A DNA stretch of 64,000 nt, from the NCBI GenBank assembly GCA_036676985.1, contig JAKFBU010000039.1:148845-212844 (forward strand), written 5' to 3'. How positions within the stretch are numbered: the first letter of the stretch is position 1; every line of letters begins with the position of its first letter. Position numbers and translations under genes: made by a program. Under the pieces are notes generated by a model. The model worked only from the letters and a program-made list of their open reading frames with translations, did no database searches and had not been told where the DNA came from. This document shows, piece after piece, positions 35,509-44,086 of the stretch. The stretch comes from Candidatus Sericytochromatia bacterium. Lineage in GTDB: Bacteria > Cyanobacteriota > Sericytochromatia > S15B-MN24 > UBA4093.

Positions 35509-35585
35509 CGGGGCGTAGCGCAGCTTGGTAGCGCATCTGCTTTGGGAGCAGAGGGTCCTGGGTTCGAATCCCAGCGCTCCGACCA
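35509..35585 (+). tRNA. tRNA-Pro(TGG)
   Basis: Cloverleaf; anticodon loop TTTGGGA; GTTCGAATCC; CCA end. Confidence 0.97.
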
Positions 35586-35599
35586 TTTACCTAACCCGT

Positions 35600-35674
35600 G
35601 CGGGTGTAACTCAGTGGTAGAGTTCCTGCCTTCCAAGCAGGCTGTCGTGGGTTCGAATCCCATCGCCCGCTCCA
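35600..35674 (+). tRNA. tRNA-Gly(TCC), intact
   Basis: GCGGGTG...CCTGC-CTTCCAA-GCAGG...GTTCGAATCC...CGCCCGCTCCA. Confidence 0.97.
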
Positions 35675-35679
35675 AACAA

Positions 35680-35714
35680 GAGGCCCTGGCGTGATGCCAG
35701 GGCCTCCTTCTTTT
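35680..35714 (+). terminator. tRNA operon terminator (also repeated in array units)
   Basis: GAGGCCCTGGC-gtgat-GCCAGGGCCTC + T-rich tail. Confidence 0.75.
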
Positions 35715-35724
35715 CTCCGAGTTG

Positions 35725-35776
35725 GCGGACGGAATGTGAAACGAATGAAACAGATGAAACAAGGCTTGTTTCATGG
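35725..35776 (+). promoter_or_regulatory. Iterated TGAAAC binding-site motif (copy 1; others at 38066-38116 and 38865-38916)
   Basis: TGAAAC x3 at 9-bp period then inverted GTTTCA. Confidence 0.6.
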
Positions 35777-35802
35777 ACAATCAGGCAGGGAATATCCAGA
35801 AT

Positions 35803-36360
35803 ATGAGACCAGGACCCGTACTGCTTTCAGTTCTTGCCGTAGCCATCCTAAGTGGGTGTGGTGTTGTCAGGAATATTGCGGCATCGGCTCCCACGCCTCA
35901 AAGCCTTTCCTTTCGAACAGTAGCCCCAACTCCCGGATCTGGCAGCGATGTGCTCGACGGGATTCGCGCGTCTGGGCTAGTAGCACGTAGTCAGTCTGAA
36001 CTGGTTAGAGAGCTTGTAAATCGTAGATACGAGACAGAGCAAGTATCCGATAATCAAGCCTATGAGGCCTTTCTCAGCAAGTCGATTCCCACGTTAGATT
36101 TCTCAACAGAACAGGGCATTCTCGCTACTTTTGGCGCACAAGGTAACACGTGTTACCGCGGCGAAATTGTTTCTGTTGAAGAGCGTCAAGATCGAATCGT
36201 TGTACACACTGTTCTTTGGGCACCCCGCTACGGGCAAAGCTGCGGAGCGGCGATTGTCTATCCCTACCACTACGTTGCGATCCCGAAGTCGGCAAAACCA
36301 GTCGAATTTCGCGAACCCGTTAGAAAAGAAGTTCCCGGAGCCTGGTGGCAGATCTTCTGA
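35803..36360 (+). CDS. Lipoprotein with PrcB C-terminal-like domain (cassette 1)
   Basis: Lipobox LSGC; PTLDFSTE..ILATFGAQ...IVSVEE..DRIVVH...AIVYPYHYVAIP. Confidence 0.7.
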   Translation: MRPGPVLLSVLAVAILSGCGVVRNIAASAPTPQSLSFRTVAPTPGSGSDVLDGIRASGLVARSQSELVRELVNRRYETEQVSDNQAYEAFLSKSIPTLDFSTEQGILATFGAQGNTCYRGEIVSVEERQDRIVVHTVLWAPRYGQSCGAAIVYPYHYVAIPKSAKPVEFREPVRKEVPGAWWQIF

Positions 36361-36377
36361 TAAAGGTTGATTAAACG

Positions 36378-36785
36378 ATGTTCCGCCTAAAGTTCGCCGG
36401 GGCGATTGCTGCTGGCGTGCTCGTAACAAGTTGCAGCTTCCCTGCCTCTGGAGTGGTTGTTGGCACGATCACGCACCTTTCTGTCAAAGGGTATTTCGGG
36501 ACCAATGTGCCAGTAACCATTCGGGCAAGGGCAACCTTTCCTGGGGCTATCGACCATGCGTCTCTAACGACAGACGTTTCAGCTCGATCAGGTAACACGA
36601 TCCGGGTCATGGCCACAGCCAGTCGAGCCCAACATTTTCTTGGGCTTGGGGTTTTCCCCGTTGATACATCCAGCCCAAACAATACCGAGATAGAGACGAC
36701 AGTTAGCGTAAGTAGCCCTGGCGTATACGTAATTGAGGGATTGCAAGATGGAGCGGTCACGGCTTCCACTTCCTTCAGCATTTGA
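36378..36785 (+). CDS. Hypothetical lipoprotein (cassette 1)
   Basis: Lipobox VTSC; beta-rich; lower GC. Confidence 0.6.
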   Translation: MFRLKFAGAIAAGVLVTSCSFPASGVVVGTITHLSVKGYFGTNVPVTIRARATFPGAIDHASLTTDVSARSGNTIRVMATASRAQHFLGLGVFPVDTSSPNNTEIETTVSVSSPGVYVIEGLQDGAVTASTSFSI

Positions 36786-36829
36786 CTTGCCAGCAGTGCG
36801 GAAATGGCCTCGCTTTGCTGCGACACACA

Positions 36830-36926
36830 GCGGGTGTGCCACCGATGGTGGCAGCAAGCAACTCCGTGGTAGAGTTCCTGCCTTCCAAGCAGGCTGTCGT
36901 GGGTTCGAATCCCATCGCCCGCTCCA
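36830..36926 (+). repeat. tRNA-Gly-derived repeat R1: full tRNA + 22-nt hairpin insertion after nt 8
   Basis: GCGGGTGT[GCCACCGATGGTGGCAGCAAGC]AACTCCGTGG...CGCTCCA; one substitution versus the intact tRNA; terminator copy follows. Confidence 0.92.
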
Positions 36927-37076
36927 AACACGAGGCCCTGGCTTGATGCCAGGGCCTCGAACTATCTCCAGTTCAGTTCTATCGCGCGAAGGCTCCGTAC
37001 TTCGATTAATGAACAGAAAGCCTTATGGCGGGTAAGAAGAAAATAATCCCTATAGTCAACTGGAGTTAGAGCTCGT

Positions 37077-37916
37077 ATGGAAATCCGTGATGTCACCATT
37101 CCTGGCTTGTCAGGCGCTTTGGTAGACATGGACATAAACAGCACCGGCCGGCTCGCATATATATGTAAATCTTTAAACGGCTACTCAGTATTTGTAGATG
37201 GCGAGAAGGTAGATATTGGGCAAGGCGTTCCCTATGATATTCGCCTTCTCTCAAATGATGAATTCGTCTTGTTTTGCCACCACGGCGAATATATCGATAA
37301 ATATTATCGACTTGAAAGGTATCAAAAATCCGCTCATTTAGGCTGGCATAGCAATTGGTCCTGGAGTATTGACCCCCAGTACGAGAATATCACCTGTACG
37401 GATCGATGGATTGCCATCGGCTTTTCCGATATGAATAGAAAAGGCGTCTTGGCAATTCCTGACCATGGGCACTCCCTGGTTTACTATAATGACATATTCT
37501 GGGAAGAAGCAGTCCGCGGCGTCGAGATATACGCAATGTGTAAAGGGCCGCGGAATTCAATCTATTTTCATCCCTACACCGATTTTCAACTTGTGCAATG
37601 GAATCTTGATACGATGACCCAGGTCGTATGGGTAACACCTGAGGCGGTTCACGGATCAAATGCAGTTTCCGTAACGGATGGTACGGCCTACTTTTACTCG
37701 CCCTATGATGAAGAACAGTATGAGGGAGATGAATTCAACTGGAAAAACGTTAGAATAACTGAGATAAGGGAGCATTCGTTCTATTCCTGGGAGATTGGAA
37801 GCTCGGTAGTAAAAAAAGTTGGCGAGTACAAGCTGAACGGGTCCACAATTAGAGGCCTTCCGGGGGGACGATTCCTTGTTATTCATCGAGACTCGTACTC
37901 AATCATCGCGTTTTAA
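37077..37916 (+). CDS. Hypothetical protein, aromatic/beta-rich, low GC (cassette 2)
   Basis: 279-aa ORF filling the space between R1 and R2. Confidence 0.7.
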   Translation: MEIRDVTIPGLSGALVDMDINSTGRLAYICKSLNGYSVFVDGEKVDIGQGVPYDIRLLSNDEFVLFCHHGEYIDKYYRLERYQKSAHLGWHSNWSWSIDPQYENITCTDRWIAIGFSDMNRKGVLAIPDHGHSLVYYNDIFWEEAVRGVEIYAMCKGPRNSIYFHPYTDFQLVQWNLDTMTQVVWVTPEAVHGSNAVSVTDGTAYFYSPYDEEQYEGDEFNWKNVRITEIREHSFYSWEIGSSVVKKVGEYKLNGSTIRGLPGGRFLVIHRDSYSIIAF

Positions 37917-37919
37917 GAA

Positions 37920-38016
37920 TTGGGTATGCCACCTCTGGTGGCAGCTAGCAACTCAGTGGTAGAGTTCCTGCCTTCCAAGCAGGCTGTCGTGGGTTCGAAT
38001 CCCATCGCCCGCTCCA
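37920..38016 (+). repeat. tRNA-Gly-derived repeat R2 with 22-nt insertion
   Basis: TTGGGTAT[GCCACCTCTGGTGGCAGCTAGC] then tRNA nt 9-75 identical. Confidence 0.92.
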
Positions 38017-38225
38017 AATGCAAGCCCCCGAGCCAGTCTCGGGGGCTTCTTCGTTCTCCGGGCCAGTGGACGGAACGCGATACAAATAAAACAAATGAAA
38101 CTACTTTTGCTTCATCTGCTGTCAGGGGTACGGTTGAGGCGCCGAGGACAAGTACGGCCTCGTTTGTGACTTACTCTAGATTGGCCGTATGGCCTTATCC
38201 AAGGTAAACTTTCTTGGTCCCTCCG

Positions 38226-38657
38226 ATGGCCTTTGACGTGACGCCGCGCCTTGATGACAAGGGAATTACTTTGAAAACAGTTCGAGACCCGGCCGACGGG
38301 ATCCACAGCAGAATACAGAACGGCACGATATATTCCTGGAATGTAAAGGACCTCTGGGCGTTGGCGGCAAGGCTCCCCGTCTTTCAAATTGACCCACAAG
38401 CCGTCATAGATCTGGACAAAGATGGATGGTTCGTTGGCAAAGAGCCAGTACTTCGGCTGGTGCTAGAGCACGTTCGGCGAATCCAAGACGCCGATCTCTC
38501 CTATCCGGTTATTTTGGATGCTGATGGGTCGATAATGGATGGAGCCCATCGTGTGGCCAAGGCAATCCTTGAAGGACGTCAGACGATTGACGCCGTTCAG
38601 TTTCGATATCTTCCTCCTCCATCTCGAACTGCGCTGGTAGCTGGCCAGGACAATTGA
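38226..38657 (+). CDS. ParB/Srx-like domain protein (cassette 3)
   Basis: DLSYPVILDADGSIMDGAHRVAKA matches the ParB N-terminal DGxHR motif; start uncertain (38214/38226). Confidence 0.65.
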   Translation: MAFDVTPRLDDKGITLKTVRDPADGIHSRIQNGTIYSWNVKDLWALAARLPVFQIDPQAVIDLDKDGWFVGKEPVLRLVLEHVRRIQDADLSYPVILDADGSIMDGAHRVAKAILEGRQTIDAVQFRYLPPPSRTALVAGQDN

Positions 38658-38720
38658 CTTTAGCTTTCGGCTCATCAGTGGCGGAATTCCTGACATAGTA
38701 GAAGCATGGTCTGGATGTCA

Positions 38721-38816
38721 GCACGTGTGCCGCGACGGTGCCTGCGAGCACCTCAGTAGAGTAATTCCAGCCTTCCAAGCAGGCTGCGGTGGGTTCGAAT
38801 CCCTTCGCCCGTTCCA
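38721..38816 (+). repeat. Degenerate tRNA-Gly-derived repeat R3
   Basis: GCACGTGT[GCCGCGACGGTGCCTGCGAGC]ACCTCAGTAGAG...CCTTCCAAGCAGG...GTTCGAATCCCTTCGCCCGTTCCA; terminator and TGAAAC motif follow. Confidence 0.88.
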
Positions 38817-38997
38817 AACACGAGGCCCTGGCGTTTGCCAGGGCCTCCCTCTATTCGCCAAAATGCGGACGGAAAATGAAACGAATGTAACAGATGATAC
38901 GGGGCATGTTTCATGGCTCATGTGATCTATTCTGTTATCAGGCTGCGCGATATTTACATCAGTCATATCAAACAATCGCTGAGGGCTCATAAACGCT

Positions 38998-39543
38998 ATG
39001 CAAGCAAAACACCTCTTACTCCCGGTGGTCTGCATTTCGCTACTCTCCGGCTGCGGAATGGTTCGTAATATTGCGGGGGCAAGCCCGCTCGCTCCATCTA
39101 TCTCTTTCCGGGTTGTATCACCTGCCAGTAGCCACACAGGCCGTTTCAACATTCGTGCGCAGAACCACGTCTTTAGAACCCAGCAAGAAGTCGATAGCTT
39201 CCTCGCTACTGTGCCTGTAACCGCATTCGACGGCAATGGAAACCAGGTTAGTGAAACTCTCCCCGCTATCGATTTTTCAAAAGAAGTCGGAATTCTTGTG
39301 CTCTTTGGTGCCCAATCCGACGGAGGCTACAGCGGCGATATCTCCGCGATTGAAGAGAAGCAAGACCGATTGATCGTCCATCCGCTCCTCTGGACTCATA
39401 GTAATGAGCCTGGCGTAGGCTACACGATGGCCATCGTTTACCCCTACAAATATGTAGCAATCCCAATTAGTTCCAAGCCCATCGAGTTTGCTTCCACCGT
39501 TGATCGCCCACGCCCCAGTCCCTGGTGGTCGATCTTCTATTAG
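38998..39543 (+). CDS. Lipoprotein with PrcB C-terminal-like domain, paralog of 35803 (cassette 4)
   Basis: LSGCGMVRNIA; PAIDFSKE..LFGAQSDGGY...AIVYPYKYVAIP; WWSIF end. Confidence 0.72.
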   Translation: MQAKHLLLPVVCISLLSGCGMVRNIAGASPLAPSISFRVVSPASSHTGRFNIRAQNHVFRTQQEVDSFLATVPVTAFDGNGNQVSETLPAIDFSKEVGILVLFGAQSDGGYSGDISAIEEKQDRLIVHPLLWTHSNEPGVGYTMAIVYPYKYVAIPISSKPIEFASTVDRPRPSPWWSIFY

Positions 39544-39547
39544 GCTG

Positions 39548-39644
39548 GCGGGTGTGGCACCTATGGTAGCAGTAAGCAACCCAGTGGTAGCGTTCCTGCC
39601 TGCCAAGCAGGCTGTCGTGGGCCGGAATCCCATCGCCCGCTCCA
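39548..39644 (+). repeat. tRNA-Gly-derived repeat R4 (anticodon position reads GCC, T-loop mutated)
   Basis: GCGGGTGT[GGCACCTATGGTAGCAGTAAGC]AACCCAGTGG...CTGCCAA...GGCCGGAATCCCATCGCCCGCTCCA. Confidence 0.9.
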
Positions 39645-39782
39645 TTTCAAAGCCTCAGCTTGATGCCCAGGCCTCGTGTTTGGAGCGAACAACAACCATC
39701 GTATAGACGTGTTGACACGAACATAAAATCATCGTAATGTCTACTGTCTCCCAATCACGACTATGCAGACAGGGACGTAACG

Positions 39783-40151
39783 ATGCATAAGAAAATGACT
39801 GTCCTCGGCCTTTGCTTGACCACCGGCCTCCTGCTGAGCGGTTGCATTTCGACGCAAAAAATGCAGTTCGACCGTGCATTTGACCCTACCGCCGGAGACA
39901 GCCGGAATGTGGAGGTCCTCGACAGTGCCAACGTCAAGCGCTCCTATAAGGTTATCGGCATCGTTGAGGCGGATGCAGTTGCCGACTACGGATTGAACAA
40001 CGTACTGTCGGCCTTGAAACTAGAGGCCAAAAAGATGGGCGGACAGGCCGTCATTGATGTGCAGCGTGTCCCAATGTACTCCAAAACGTTTTGGGATGGC
40101 TTGTTCCCGAGTGGCCAGCGCTGGAGCGGCAAGGTCATTACCTGGGAATAG
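39783..40151 (+). CDS. Small lipoprotein, YbjQ-like fold (cassette 5)
   Basis: Lipobox LSGC; YKVIGIV...LKLEAKKMGGQAVI; own TTGACA at 39712. Confidence 0.65.
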   Translation: MHKKMTVLGLCLTTGLLLSGCISTQKMQFDRAFDPTAGDSRNVEVLDSANVKRSYKVIGIVEADAVADYGLNNVLSALKLEAKKMGGQAVIDVQRVPMYSKTFWDGLFPSGQRWSGKVITWE

Positions 40152-40173
40152 TTCACCGATTCCATCGTCCAAG

Positions 40174-40262
40174 CCTGCCTACATAGCAGGCTGTCGTGCG
40201 ATCTCGCACCAAGCAAGAGGCCCTGGCTTGATGCCGGGGCCTCTTGCTTGGAGCGGGCGATG
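40174..40262 (+). repeat. Highly degenerate tRNA-Gly repeat R5 + terminator + inverted tRNA 3' end
   Basis: CCTGCCTACATAGCAGGCTGTCGTG, GAGGCCCTGGCTTGATGCCGGGGCCTC, then TTGGAGCGGGCGATG (reverse complement of the tRNA 3' end). Confidence 0.8.
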
Positions 40263-40404
40263 AGGGAAACAAACTGAGCAGGCTCCCCCTGCACGCTTGA
40301 GTAAGCTTTCCACGAAATTAGGGTAACCTGTCTAGTACGTGCTCGCAGCGGGTGGGTGGACAGCCAGAGACGCGCCCGAGCTCGAGACGTAGAGGAGGGC
40401 CACG

Positions 40405-40893
40405 ATGACGAAGTCCAGGATCTGCCTGTGGTATGACCGTGACGCGGAGGAAGCTGCACGCTTCTACGCCCAAACCTTTCCCGATAGCACGGTCGGCGCG
40501 GTGCAGCGAGCGCCCTCGGACTTCCCGAGCGGCAAGGCAGGCGACGTGCTGACGGTCGAGTTCACGGTCTGTGGGCTGCCTTGCCTGGGCCTCAATGGCG
40601 GGGACGCGTTCCCGCAAACCGAAGCGTTCTCCTTTCAAATCGAGACGGAGGACCAGGCGGAGACCGACCGCTATTGGAACGCGATCGTCGGAAACGGCGG
40701 TGAGGAGAGCGCGTGTGGCTGGTGCAAGGACAAATGGGGCGTGTCCTGGCAGATCACGCCGCGTATCCTGACGGAGGCGATGGCCCAAGGGGGCGACGTC
40801 GCGAAGCGCGCGTTTGAGGCGATGATGGAGATGCAAAAGATCGACGTCGCCAAAATCGAGGCGGCGGTGCGCGGCGAGACCGAGTCGAAATAA
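40405..40893 (+). CDS. VOC/PhnB-family protein (3-demethylubiquinone-9 methyltransferase-like domain)
   Basis: CLWYD..AEEAARFY, LNGG, CGWCKDKWGVSWQI, MQKID. Confidence 0.9.
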   Translation: MTKSRICLWYDRDAEEAARFYAQTFPDSTVGAVQRAPSDFPSGKAGDVLTVEFTVCGLPCLGLNGGDAFPQTEAFSFQIETEDQAETDRYWNAIVGNGGEESACGWCKDKWGVSWQITPRILTEAMAQGGDVAKRAFEAMMEMQKIDVAKIEAAVRGETESK

Positions 40894-41168
40894 ATCACCC
40901 GACTCCCGTATCGAAGCCTCGGCCTTGCGCCGGGGCTTCGGTGTTTCTCCGACCAAATGTGACCCGTTAAGGCCGTGACTCAAGAAGGCGCGAAGCGATC
41001 GGCTCGCTCAAAGGCAAATCGCTCACCGGAAAGTGCTTGTGGAAAGCATCCCATGACTGTTGGTAGAAGCACCGTTGAACGAAGAACGCTTGCCTGGCAG
41101 CATATCGAAAGGCCTCGTTTGATGTGCCATTTGCTTGGCACGGCGCGATAGCAAGAGGGAGCGAAGCG

Positions 41169-41867
41169 ATGAATCACAACCTCGGCAGCATCCTGATGAT
41201 GGGGCTCATCTTCTGTCCACTGGTGCTCACGGGTTGCTTGACCGCGCCTTCGGCCACGACGCTGTTTCAGCATGACACCTCACGATCGGCCCCGGACGGC
41301 TATCAGGTAGCCGCCATCCGCAGCTTCTCCAAGCACAAGGGCGACTACCTTCCGGCGCATAACTTCAAACTAGAGATGGATGCGGTCGTGGTCGGCTCGT
41401 TCCAGAACGCCCAGGGAGTCCCACGATCGCCTGTCCTTCAAGAGGCTGATTGGCCGGCAATCGACCTGCGAACCGGTGGGTTCAAAGAGGTCAGCGGACT
41501 CGAGGCGGAAGTGGAAGTCATCGAGTACCGGAACGGTGACGATCCCATCACTCACAAACGCGCCGGTAAGGCCAAGTATAAGAACATCACCCTCAAACGG
41601 GGTCAATTCAGCGATCCTTCGGTAGCCGACTGGCTTAAAAAGGTCCTCGCTGGAACAACGGACCGTAAAAGTGGCAGCATTATCTACCTCGACCGCGAGG
41701 GGAGCGAGATATTACGCTATAACTTCTTCGAGGCATGGCCAGTCCGCTGGAAAATCGCCAATCGGGACAGTCAAGCCATCGTTGAGATTGAGTTTGCGGT
41801 GGAACGAATTGAGCCAGCCGGCAAAGCCCTGCCTGGTGATCCGATTCCCGGAATCGATGTTCGTTAG
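41169..41867 (+). CDS. T4-gp19-like / eCIS tail-tube domain fused to a lipoprotein signal
   Basis: Lipobox LTGC; FKEVSGLEAEVEVIEYRNG...KYKNITLKRG...W...RKSGSIIYLD...RYNFFEAWPVRW. Confidence 0.82.
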   Translation: MNHNLGSILMMGLIFCPLVLTGCLTAPSATTLFQHDTSRSAPDGYQVAAIRSFSKHKGDYLPAHNFKLEMDAVVVGSFQNAQGVPRSPVLQEADWPAIDLRTGGFKEVSGLEAEVEVIEYRNGDDPITHKRAGKAKYKNITLKRGQFSDPSVADWLKKVLAGTTDRKSGSIIYLDREGSEILRYNFFEAWPVRWKIANRDSQAIVEIEFAVERIEPAGKALPGDPIPGIDVR

Positions 41868-42009
41868 AGCATAACTTAGCGTTCTCAGACGCTCGACCCG
41901 ATAGAGAAATGGACTTTCCACGGGAATTCCACCCGAAGGCCCGATCGGGCATTTGTGGCAGCCGTCCTCATTTTGAAGTGGTTCGCGATGCGATGAGCGC
42001 TCCACAGAC

Positions 42010-42195
42010 CTACAGCACTGGTCGCCCGAGAACAGTGCCACGGGGCTTGAGCGGATTATCTGGCTTGCCAATCTGAATTCCCTGGGTGTTATCCAAAAAA
42101 GCAAGCAATAATCCCATGGCCAAGATGGCACTCGCAACTATCAGCAAGCTCTTAAGAGGGTTGCGAACAAAGAAGTCTGCAAATCGTTTCATCAC
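42010..42195 (-). CDS. Small single-TM hypothetical protein
   Basis: 61 aa, one hydrophobic helix, AGGA RBS. Confidence 0.45.
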   Translation of the reverse strand: MMKRFADFFVRNPLKSLLIVASAILAMGLLLAFLDNTQGIQIGKPDNPLKPRGTVLGRPVL

Positions 42196-42280
42196 TTTTC
42201 CTATTGCACTTCATACGACTCCTGCTACTTGGAGTATTTGAGGCGGCGCGTGCTACGGAGTTAATTCTATTAATCGGGGT

Positions 42281-42374
42281 CGGGTGTGTACATCCCCAAT
42301 GGTGGCAGCAAGCAGGTCGAATCCCATCGCCCGCTCTCCCCCTCGAGGCCCCGACGTAACGCCGGGGCCTCGAG
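42281..42374 (+). repeat. Internally deleted tRNA-Gly repeat R6 + hairpin
   Basis: CGGGTGTG...ATGGTGGCAGCAAGCA joined to GGTCGAATCCCATCGCCCGCTC; GAGGCCCCG..CGGGGCCTC hairpin. Confidence 0.82.
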
Positions 42375-42534
42375 CCTTTGCCACTCCAACGAAAAACGGG
42401 GGGAAATATTTCTCGCCGATTGACCTAGGACGGTCACGGTCAACCAGCTATCACAAGACCAAAGACCCGCTCCTGTCCCCCGATTGGCCGCCCGGCGCAA
42501 ACTTGGATCCCGGGCGAGAAAGGGGATACTCCCC

Positions 42535-43325: not shown

Positions 43326-43649
43326 TTACCAGTAACGCCGCTTGGAATAGCCGTAGCCGTAGCCGTAGCCATAATAGGGATAGCCGTAGCGGTTGTACGG
43401 ATTATAGCCGTAGCCGTATCCATAACCGTAATAGGGATAGTACGGAGCGAAACAGTCCCCGCAGAACCCTTGTGTCTCACGGGTTGCTTCGGGCGTTTCG
43501 GCCGTCGTTTGGGTCACGGCTTGAGCCGGATCCTGCGTCTGCGATTGCTCCGGGGTTTGCACGGGGGGTTGGGTGGGTGCTTCAGAGCATCCGGCAGTAG
43601 CCGCAAGGGAAGCCACGAAGAGGGTGACCCACAATTGCTTCAATTGCAT
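43326..43649 (-). CDS. Small lipoprotein with Gln/Thr/Pro linker and Tyr/Gly-rich tail
   Basis: Lipobox TAGC; FCGDCF then YGYGYG repeats. Confidence 0.6.
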   Translation of the reverse strand: MQLKQLWVTLFVASLAATAGCSEAPTQPPVQTPEQSQTQDPAQAVTQTTAETPEATRETQGFCGDCFAPYYPYYGYGYGYGYNPYNRYGYPYYGYGYGYGYSKRRYW

Positions 43650-44086
43650 AAATACTCCCAGATAAAGCATGTGCGAGGGCTACCCCTTGGTAGCCTCATT
43701 CATGGGCCAAACAATAGACGAGGACCTGCGACGGAATAATGTCCATTAGTGGCTGGTTCCTGGTCGCTTTTGATCACCCGCCGACCGATCAGGCAAACAG
43801 AGGTTTTGGCGGACCAGCCCGATTGGTGGGGCTTTCGACGATCTCGCACCCGGCCCTCCCAGGACCCGAGTGTGCCCAAAGACACACGCGATGGACGCTT
43901 ACTCGATTGAAGCGCAACCGGTTGCTATGAGGGCTCGATTGGCGCTCCCTTCCCCGTCGGGGCTCACCGTTGTTTCTTCGCAAGTGGGCGATAGGAGCCA
44001 ATTTGCCTTGCTGACGACATGGCACCGCGTTGTCGGACGGTCGCTGCTCGTGTTACGGTTGGTAGAGCTATTGCGCGACCAAGCGC

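Follow-up and report, generated by a model that had tools for sequence, protein, structure and literature searches.

The window analysed here is a 64,000-nucleotide stretch of contig JAKFBU010000039.1 (positions 148,845 to 212,844, forward strand; assembly GCA_036676985.1) from a Candidatus Sericytochromatia bacterium. On its plus strand, at 41169..41867, lies an open reading frame (ORF) with an intact frame of 232 codons, and its 232-residue product, hereafter the tube protein, places a tail-tube domain of the contractile injection system (CIS) type behind a lipoprotein-type leader.

Domain organization and fold of the tube protein

Translation would start at the ATG at 41169, as the sequence supports: a Shine-Dalgarno-like motif read from the sequence, GAGGGAG (41155..41161, +), lies 7 nt 5' of it, and no comparable motif precedes any of the in-frame alternative starts at codons 10, 11, 19, 24, and 70. 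The leader (residues 1-22) and the lipobox Cys23 are encoded by 41169..41237 (+). Residues 1-23, MNHNLGSILMMGLIFCPLVLTG followed by C, contain a 13-residue hydrophobic stretch and then L-T-G-C at residues 20-23. Signals were called by a rule of our own, not by SignalP, which requires a best 12-residue Kyte-Doolittle window of at least 1.9 within the first 45 residues and assigns a lipobox when a PROSITE-like pattern follows. The best window of this leader scores 2.64, and L-T-G-C, coming after the hydrophobic ILMMGLIFCPLVL, fits the pattern [LVI][ASTVI][GAS]C with Cys between residues 15 and 35, giving a lipoprotein signal at the LTGC lipobox that the first-pass annotation had already picked out. 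The genome encodes Lgt (PF01790, 283.9 bits) and signal peptidase II, LspA (PF01252, two matches of 122 bits). The host, a soil bacterium, is probably a non-photosynthetic relative of the cyanobacteria, as two genomes of the order encode proteins identical to ones labelled Sericytochromatia or Cyanobacteria in their sources; given that phylum, we take it to be diderm.

The leader is followed by an Ala/Pro/Ser/Thr-rich tether (residues 24-57; 41238..41339, +), delimited with alignments A1 and A2 and modelled with a predicted local distance difference test (pLDDT) score of 45-54, and at its end lies the AIRSFSKHK motif, the conserved start of signal-less tubes. Residues 58-74 (GDYLPAHNFKLEMDAVV; 41340..41390, +) align with the N-terminus of full-length tubes and form the tube domain's true N-terminal strand region. 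The next 27 residues (75-101; 41391..41471, +) are a private insertion, marked by gaps in all 75 compared relatives and by a pLDDT below 55. Its last part, AIDLRTGGF, is a second copy of the strand-1 motif EIDGxxxGGF (xIDxxxGGF), and we therefore read the insertion as a partial duplication of strand 1. An extra, partial tube N-terminus had been proposed within the linker; such a segment does exist, with the qualification that residues 58-74 are the real first strand and the duplication comes after them. The tube core (residues 102-217; 41472..41819, +) has lost four conserved loop residues (PELN) after position 196, in agreement with the shortened C-terminal loop noted at first sight. The C-terminal tail (residues 218-232, GKALPGDPIPGIDVR; 41820..41867 with the stop codon, +) includes the GDPIPGIDV run that had been noticed in the translation, and is modelled as disordered (pLDDT 40-52); the closest signal-less tubes are without these 15 residues (...PGDPIPGIDVR).

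An AlphaFold2 model was built from a 137-sequence alignment. Its confidence is high over the tube core, residues 103-217 (means of 10-residue blocks 73-96, mostly 84-96), middling over strand 1, residues 66-76 (strands at 66-70 and 73-76), and low over the leader and tether (residues 1-60), the insertion (77-102), and the tail (218-232).

Profile searches placed the protein in the Phage_T4_gp19 family, PF06841 (E 1.2e-29; 103.2 bits against a cut-off of 28.2), which bears out the gp19/Afp1-type core of the first-pass annotation. The match extends over residues 102-214, corresponding to positions 14-133 of the 134 in the profile, and the positions before 14 are not absent: they are supplied by residues 58-74, which the insertion has split off. 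TIGR02241 was likewise passed (76.3 bits, cut-off 62.4), and the scores for the two NCBIfam equivalogs of working machines fell far short of their cut-offs (CIS1_fam, the working CIS tube, 45.7 bits against 220; CIS5_fam, the adaptor, 54.3 bits against 260). The best solved matches of the model in Foldseek were tube or adaptor chains of AlgoCIS, PVC, the thylakoid-anchored CIS of Anabaena, and Afp, with a match probability of 1.00, E values of 3e-9 to 2e-8, and template modelling (TM) scores of 0.66-0.74 normalised to the target. Alignment with VIA superposed residues 57-220 of the model on the whole Afp5 and Pvc5 chains (Z 13.8, 136-137 residues aligned), and Pvc1 (Z 12.9), Hcp (Z 12.6), and T4 gp19 (Z 10.5) followed. 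A phmmer search of the PDB sequences reached 1e-14 to CIS tubes, including Anabaena All3324, and the ESM Atlas returned gp19-type clusters only, with every score below 0.9. Among the 84 positions conserved in at least 85% of the 19 closest signal-less tubes, 69 are retained; of the 15 that differ, 4 are the loop deletion and 6 are conservative swaps.

Among known systems, CIS inner tubes (Afp1, Pvc1, AlgoCIS 7adz, Anabaena All3324 7b5h, and Streptomyces CIS) share the PF06841/TIGR02241 family and the fold over the whole chain (Z 11.9-12.9; Foldseek TM 0.68-0.74 normalised to the target). Relative to them, the tube protein adds the lipobox leader, a 35-residue tether, the 27-residue insertion, and the 15-residue tail, and loses the four loop residues; furthermore, those tubes belong to machines, whereas the genome studied here has no sheath, baseplate, or second tube match. 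The closest metagenomic relatives are signal-less tubes of 146-148 residues with up to 72% identity over the domain, and the closest relative in a genome locus sits within a sheath-tube cluster. The tube adaptors or initiators Afp5 and Pvc5 (CIS5_fam) are the top structural matches, tied with tube proteins within 1 Z unit, and the CIS5 score lies slightly above the CIS1 score; an adaptor, however, sits between baseplate and tube, neither of which is present in this genome. Hcp from type VI secretion (the T6SS) and phage T4 gp19 have the tube fold in common with the tube protein, while sequence similarity to either is marginal. Hcp does occur outside cells, which it leaves by firing and not by Sec, without a signal peptide.

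An orphan gene and its signal-bearing relatives

Between 29 and 49 kb of the window, 19 ORFs were scanned, and none belongs to a CIS family. The genome comprises 4.68 Mb in 79 contigs, with an estimated completeness of 100 and contamination of 5.09, and the tube gene is its sole match to the PF06841 profile. The sheath profile PF04984 gave a best match of 21.4 bits on another contig, below the cut-off of 31.4, and neither the baseplate gp25 family PF04965 nor PF17482 was matched anywhere in the genome. The view that no other tail genes accompany the gene thus holds for the scanned part of the window and, for these four families, for the whole genome. A defence or phage origin was also considered and set aside: PADLOC returned no match for the tube protein, two relatives, and seven islet neighbours, the scanned viral contigs gave 17 pattern matches with no relative among them, and PHROGs yielded a single tail-tube match of 31 bits.

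Maintenance of the gene was assessed by comparing contigs of four sequencing runs over 40300-42400. Contigs from a groundwater study and a rhizosphere study, neither of them the possible source study, include pieces identical to this stretch as well as pieces about 6-11% different from it. The diverged pieces carry 13-23 other letters in 168-212, without gaps, and two of them span the insertion (X5 record 12 and X6 record 22); no insertion or deletion occurs among the variants listed for the diverged contigs. Six of the eight listed variant sites inside the gene are synonymous, and the two replacements, M70I and A72G, both restore the family consensus. In their sequences, these variants show signs of purifying selection on the gene in related strains.

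The same fusion was then sought in other genomes, as had been suggested at the outset, and many signal-bearing tube homologues were found. A word-indexed search listed 120 of 387 matches, and an exhaustive search of 1.84 billion cluster representatives listed 150 of 2797 matches at E <= 0.001; the near-length set from the former and the representative set from the latter have 16 proteins in common. Among the matches listed, and by the rule given above, a signal-like N-terminus is present in 68 of 119 near-length homologues (23 with a lipobox) and in 98 of 149 representatives of 50% clusters (14 with a lipobox), and in none of the 43 homologues shorter than 160 residues. The signal-less forms of 146-148 residues open with M-AIR..KHxGDYLPAHNF, exactly the start of the mature part in the exported forms. 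The tube protein is alone in its own 90% cluster; it was matched in none of nine same-family genomes and in two of eight genomes of one sister family. Homologues from the same order have hydrophobic leaders with LTGC or LSGC, of other sequence. The earlier proviso that the fusion might be unique and decaying is contradicted by these results, since signal-bearing tubes are numerous and occur in unrelated phyla, and the gene is intact in diverged strains with mostly synonymous listed changes.

The loci of relatives were compared by scanning one genome per species, which gave 80 loci with ORFs fixed by a hidden Markov model of alignment A1. Signal-bearing or multi-domain tube forms were found at 11 of them, by record title four from Peregrinibacteria/Peribacteria, two from Sericytochromatia/Cyanobacteria, one from Dehalococcoidia, three from Myxococcota, and one from Lloydbacteria. 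The 130 neighbouring ORFs of these 11 loci include no sheath, baseplate, spike, or second tube, and no partner gene recurs among them. Signal-less loci have a second tube ORF in 38 of 69 cases (32 of 49 where at least 4 kb downstream is present), and the two that were scanned by Pfam, one of them that of the query's closest genome-borne relative, proved to be Pvc16-sheath-tube-sheath-tube-CIS_tube clusters. Of five carrier genomes searched whole, three gave no match to a sheath, in a fourth a sheath lies on another contig, and in the fifth the signal-bearing tube is found by itself, away from two real CIS loci. In the Dehalococcoidia genome G065 (the genome behind locus L044), three tube genes lie beside sheath genes on two contigs and a fourth, signal-bearing, lies alone on a third contig, indicating that machine-bound and exported forms can coexist. 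We use "exported orphan tube proteins" as an informal name for proteins with a signal-like N-terminus on PF06841 and no CIS genes nearby, a group that comprises the gene in the window and the 11 loci. The histidine kinases that were compared for synteny with a same-order carrier share 49% identity, in the catalytic part only.

A quick maximum-likelihood tree (137 rows, 135 columns, LG+G4, insertion columns left out) was used to follow the signal across the family. The signal label changes 17 times on this tree, against shuffled means above 40, and the starred branches force at least 3-5 changes; signals have therefore been gained or lost several times. On the sequence data, the exported tubes do not form one clade and appear as a polyphyletic group or one with many losses. 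A clade of 25 rows consists almost wholly of lipoproteins, many of them ending in ...HDTAKNSVGNIR. Many of its members also carry a 14-15-residue duplication of strand 1 directly beside the insertion site of the tube protein, and same-order genomes carry such lipobox versions; in the model of one member the duplicated strand is folded (pLDDT 79-85). The conserved C-terminal tail of this type, ...K(T/A)(K/R)HDTAKNS(V/I)GNIR, is found in 22 relatives (for example P0036, P0072, and L017:4942-5577), 20 of which are lipoproteins by our rule; the model shows it as a helix of low confidence. The idea that it is a sorting tag shared with other proteins was rejected for the 27 genomes searched in the order, where the back-translated pattern had a single match, the tube gene itself. 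Exported tubes as a general feature of Patescibacteria were likewise rejected, since PF06841 was found in none of 200 other sampled Patescibacteria genomes, pointing to a narrow distribution there.

Longer relatives place the tube domain in multi-domain proteins. A recurrent architecture of candidate-phyla bacteria (P0127, P0134, P0149, P0151, P0173, P0237, and L019:806-2683) consists of a signal peptide, DUF5667, the tail-tube domain, and then at least one Kazal inhibitor domain, and our literature search found no paper combining any two of DUF5667, tail tube, and Kazal. Among 24 longer relatives scanned, the DUF5667-gp19-Kazal order occurs in six and two gp19 stretches occur in eight. Two signal-bearing giants were also observed: P0141 (5355 residues), with five matched tube-domain stretches, and P0210 (1943 residues), with an Ig-like domain, CIS_tube, two gp19 stretches, and DUF4214.

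The tRNA-Gly islet

The tube gene lies in a region of low G+C content, 49-59% between 36 and 44 kb of the window against 63-71% around it, and its own G+C content at third codon positions is 0.67, compared with 0.87-0.95 in the flanking core genes. This islet begins at a tRNA-Pro and a tRNA-Gly(TCC) at 35509-35674. Behind this tRNA pair, in the stretch 35509-42336, the last ~60 nt of tRNA-Gly recur as an array of degenerate copies; four near-complete ones, spaced 0.8-1.3 kb apart, begin near 36832, 37922, 38722, and 39550, with a common foreign 5' flank (GTGGCAGCAAGCAAC-like) and a hairpin after them. The unit of the tube gene is bounded on the left by a degenerate tRNA-Gly 3' copy with a hairpin (40174..40262, +; repeat families D3, D4, and I5) and on the right by the 5' flank of the repeat with the last 20 nt of tRNA-Gly (42296..42336, +; repeat families D5 and D6), both placed with alignment A3. 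Small low-GC genes, one or two of them, occupy each interval of the array, none of which contains an integrase; the interval of the tube gene also contains a PhnB-like gene (40405-40893). Elsewhere in the genome the array repeat occurs only at another tRNA-Gly-like site. In three same-family genomes the tRNA pair is kept beside the same DUF4332 gene and the islet genes are missing, except for one small-lipoprotein paralogue. In appearance, the array resembles a stack of leftovers from small integrating elements, or else a site of accretion in cassette-like fashion. From the composition of the islet and the three same-family genomes without its genes, we conclude that the tube gene was acquired horizontally and is a passenger in a variable hotspot linked to a tRNA.

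Three further features of the region were recorded. The genes at 35773-36360 and 38998-39543, in different array units, are paralogues encoding small secreted proteins or lipoproteins; one of the two matches PrcB_C weakly, and both match one single gene in a same-family genome with 43-45% identity. A gene at 43326-43670 (-) encodes a small secreted protein of 114 residues without a Pfam match, in which the C-terminal half consists of Tyr-Gly repeats (YGYGYGY...; DNA repeat family D7). Inside the PhnB-like gene, at 40655-40796, all four runs show a peak of contig depth some 140 nt wide, 20- to 100-fold higher, with many loose ends and variants; this peak looks like a conserved core common to genes of this family in many other organisms, not a feature of this genome.

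Interpretation of the tube protein

The combined evidence makes it probable that the tube protein is exported, orphan, and maintained, and tips the balance, if modestly, toward an exported, lipid-tethered, machine-less tube module that has been maintained. In the proposed mechanism, the leader would direct the protein to Sec, and Lgt and LspA, both encoded, would lipidate and cleave it at the lipobox Cys23. The flexible tether of ~35 residues would then hold the 175-residue tube domain at the face of a membrane, either within the periplasm or on the surface. There the domain probably still forms a six-membered tube ring, because most residues conserved in the closest cytoplasmic CIS relatives have been kept; for ring formation as such we see about even chances. 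Since sheath, baseplate, and spike are all missing from the genome, the protein could not be fired and its role would have to be static, and we can only speculate that it serves as a ring or short-tube scaffold or as a binding platform. Our most specific guess is that it caps the tubes of incoming phages or CISs at their ends, or acts as a decoy for those ends. The gene would have arrived by horizontal transfer into the variable islet behind tRNA-Gly and been kept by selection in related strains.

A broader proposal can be offered only tentatively: tail-tube proteins may repeatedly have been taken from contractile machines, exported by Sec, and left to self-assemble, with no need of sheath, baseplate, or tape measure, into periplasmic or surface rings or tubes, with the form described here lipid-anchored and perhaps capping or trapping the tube ends of attackers such as phages, tailocins, or injection systems. 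Action of the tube protein as a decoy or defence factor is in our estimate rather improbable. Prophages encode superinfection-exclusion lipoproteins, namely Ltp (TP-J34), Llp (T5), and Cor, small lipid-anchored envelope proteins from mobile DNA that meet incoming phage tails; their likeness to the tube protein is one of functional analogy only, and no relation in sequence or fold is expected. The first-pass annotation had proposed a domesticated, membrane-anchored exported tube or ring, or else a decoy or immunity factor, and what stands of this is that a lipoprotein-type leader precedes a CIS-type tube domain in a protein encoded apart from sheath and baseplate genes.

Several observations weigh against the module that we favor, and they are given here together with the rival explanations. 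The first of these explanations, which we consider unlikely although it is the best of the rivals, is that the protein is exported and forms no ring, the tube fold being reused as a monomeric beta-sandwich envelope module that binds or adheres, in the manner of the large multi-domain proteins found outside cells. The longer relatives described above, from the six DUF5667-gp19-Kazal proteins and the eight with two gp19 stretches to P0210 and the five-stretch P0141, suggest that the tube fold has a further possible use as a plain module outside the cell. Likewise, the insertion beside strand 1, found in none of the 75 compared relatives and modelled as disordered, could disturb ring packing, and together with the added tail it could block ring contacts. 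However, retention of 69 of the 84 conserved CIS-tube positions is more than would be expected once a protein is free of the constraint of assembly, and tandem tube domains also fit pseudo-hexameric tubes, so they are no argument against rings.

The second explanation regards the gene as a chance product, a fragment of a CIS tube gene that landed behind a hydrophobic leader in a mobile islet and, functionless, is drifting to loss. The low-GC islet of single-gene units without integrase agrees with it, as do the private insertion, the atypical leader, and the one-member 90% cluster. The tube protein also falls in an unresolved polytomy of the tree, outside any supported exported clade, where the nearest rows by tree path are ordinary signal-less CIS tubes. 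The evidence for maintenance comes from a sample of variants, with 8 sites listed for the gene and a further 117 sites in the 2.1-kb stretch unlisted, and no RNA run is listed as containing the stretch. Against such an origin, the frame is intact, contigs that are diverged by ~6-11%, come from two studies, and cover the insertion show no listed insertions or deletions, and 6 of 8 listed changes are synonymous. Signal-bearing tubes have moreover arisen or persisted many times, as the 17 changes against a shuffled mean above 40 indicate, and same-order genomes carry lipobox versions duplicated at a neighbouring site. We therefore judge a chance product to be highly unlikely.

The last explanation, an ordinary cytoplasmic tube, supposes that translation starts after the lipobox or that the N-terminus is no signal, with the machine encoded in unassembled DNA. 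A downstream start had been foreseen in the first-pass annotation, and a candidate does exist: the TTG at codon 24, in frame just after Cys23, could yield a cytoplasmic product. The PROSITE lipoprotein rule PS51257 asks for at least one Lys or Arg within the first seven residues, which here read MNHNLGS and contain neither, unlike the two lipoproteins encoded just upstream, which have Lys in the n-region. Our own signal rule in turn misjudged at least two proteins that are lipoproteins by eye (P0041 and P0081) as having no signal, and the genome assembly has draft status, with 79 contigs and 5% contamination. This explanation is nevertheless very improbable, given that the Shine-Dalgarno-like motif stands ahead of the ATG and not of the TTG, that no match over the cut-off was found for the four CIS marker families in a genome estimated to be complete, that three other carrier genomes likewise have no sheath match, and that homologues retain hydrophobic lipobox leaders while the leader sequences diverge.

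Tube proteins of phage tails, tailocins, extracellular CISs, and T6SSs are regarded as components of a firing machine and as assembled in the cytoplasm, and our full-text literature search found no paper on tube proteins with a Sec or lipoprotein signal. Two reports touch on the family. In one, a Phage_T4_gp19 protein is the most abundant member of one cluster in the extracellular proteome of Accumulibacter granules (bioRxiv 10.1101/2024.11.06.622250); in the other, Myxococcota metagenome-assembled genomes contain highly transcribed gp19 genes linked to sheath genes (PMC11937823). The tube protein belongs to a large group of exported tube proteins that is apparently unstudied. Source databases name such homologues simply "phage tail protein", an annotation that may inflate prophage or CIS calls. 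The many signal-bearing relatives that stand alone in sheath-less genomes point to a second life of the tube fold outside the cytoplasm. If these proteins bind incoming tails, they would represent a new kind of envelope defence; if they assemble, they would provide simple building blocks for nanotubes or rings that are genetically encoded and can be exported; and self-assembly of exported tubes, if true, would define an unrecognised class of extracytoplasmic structure.

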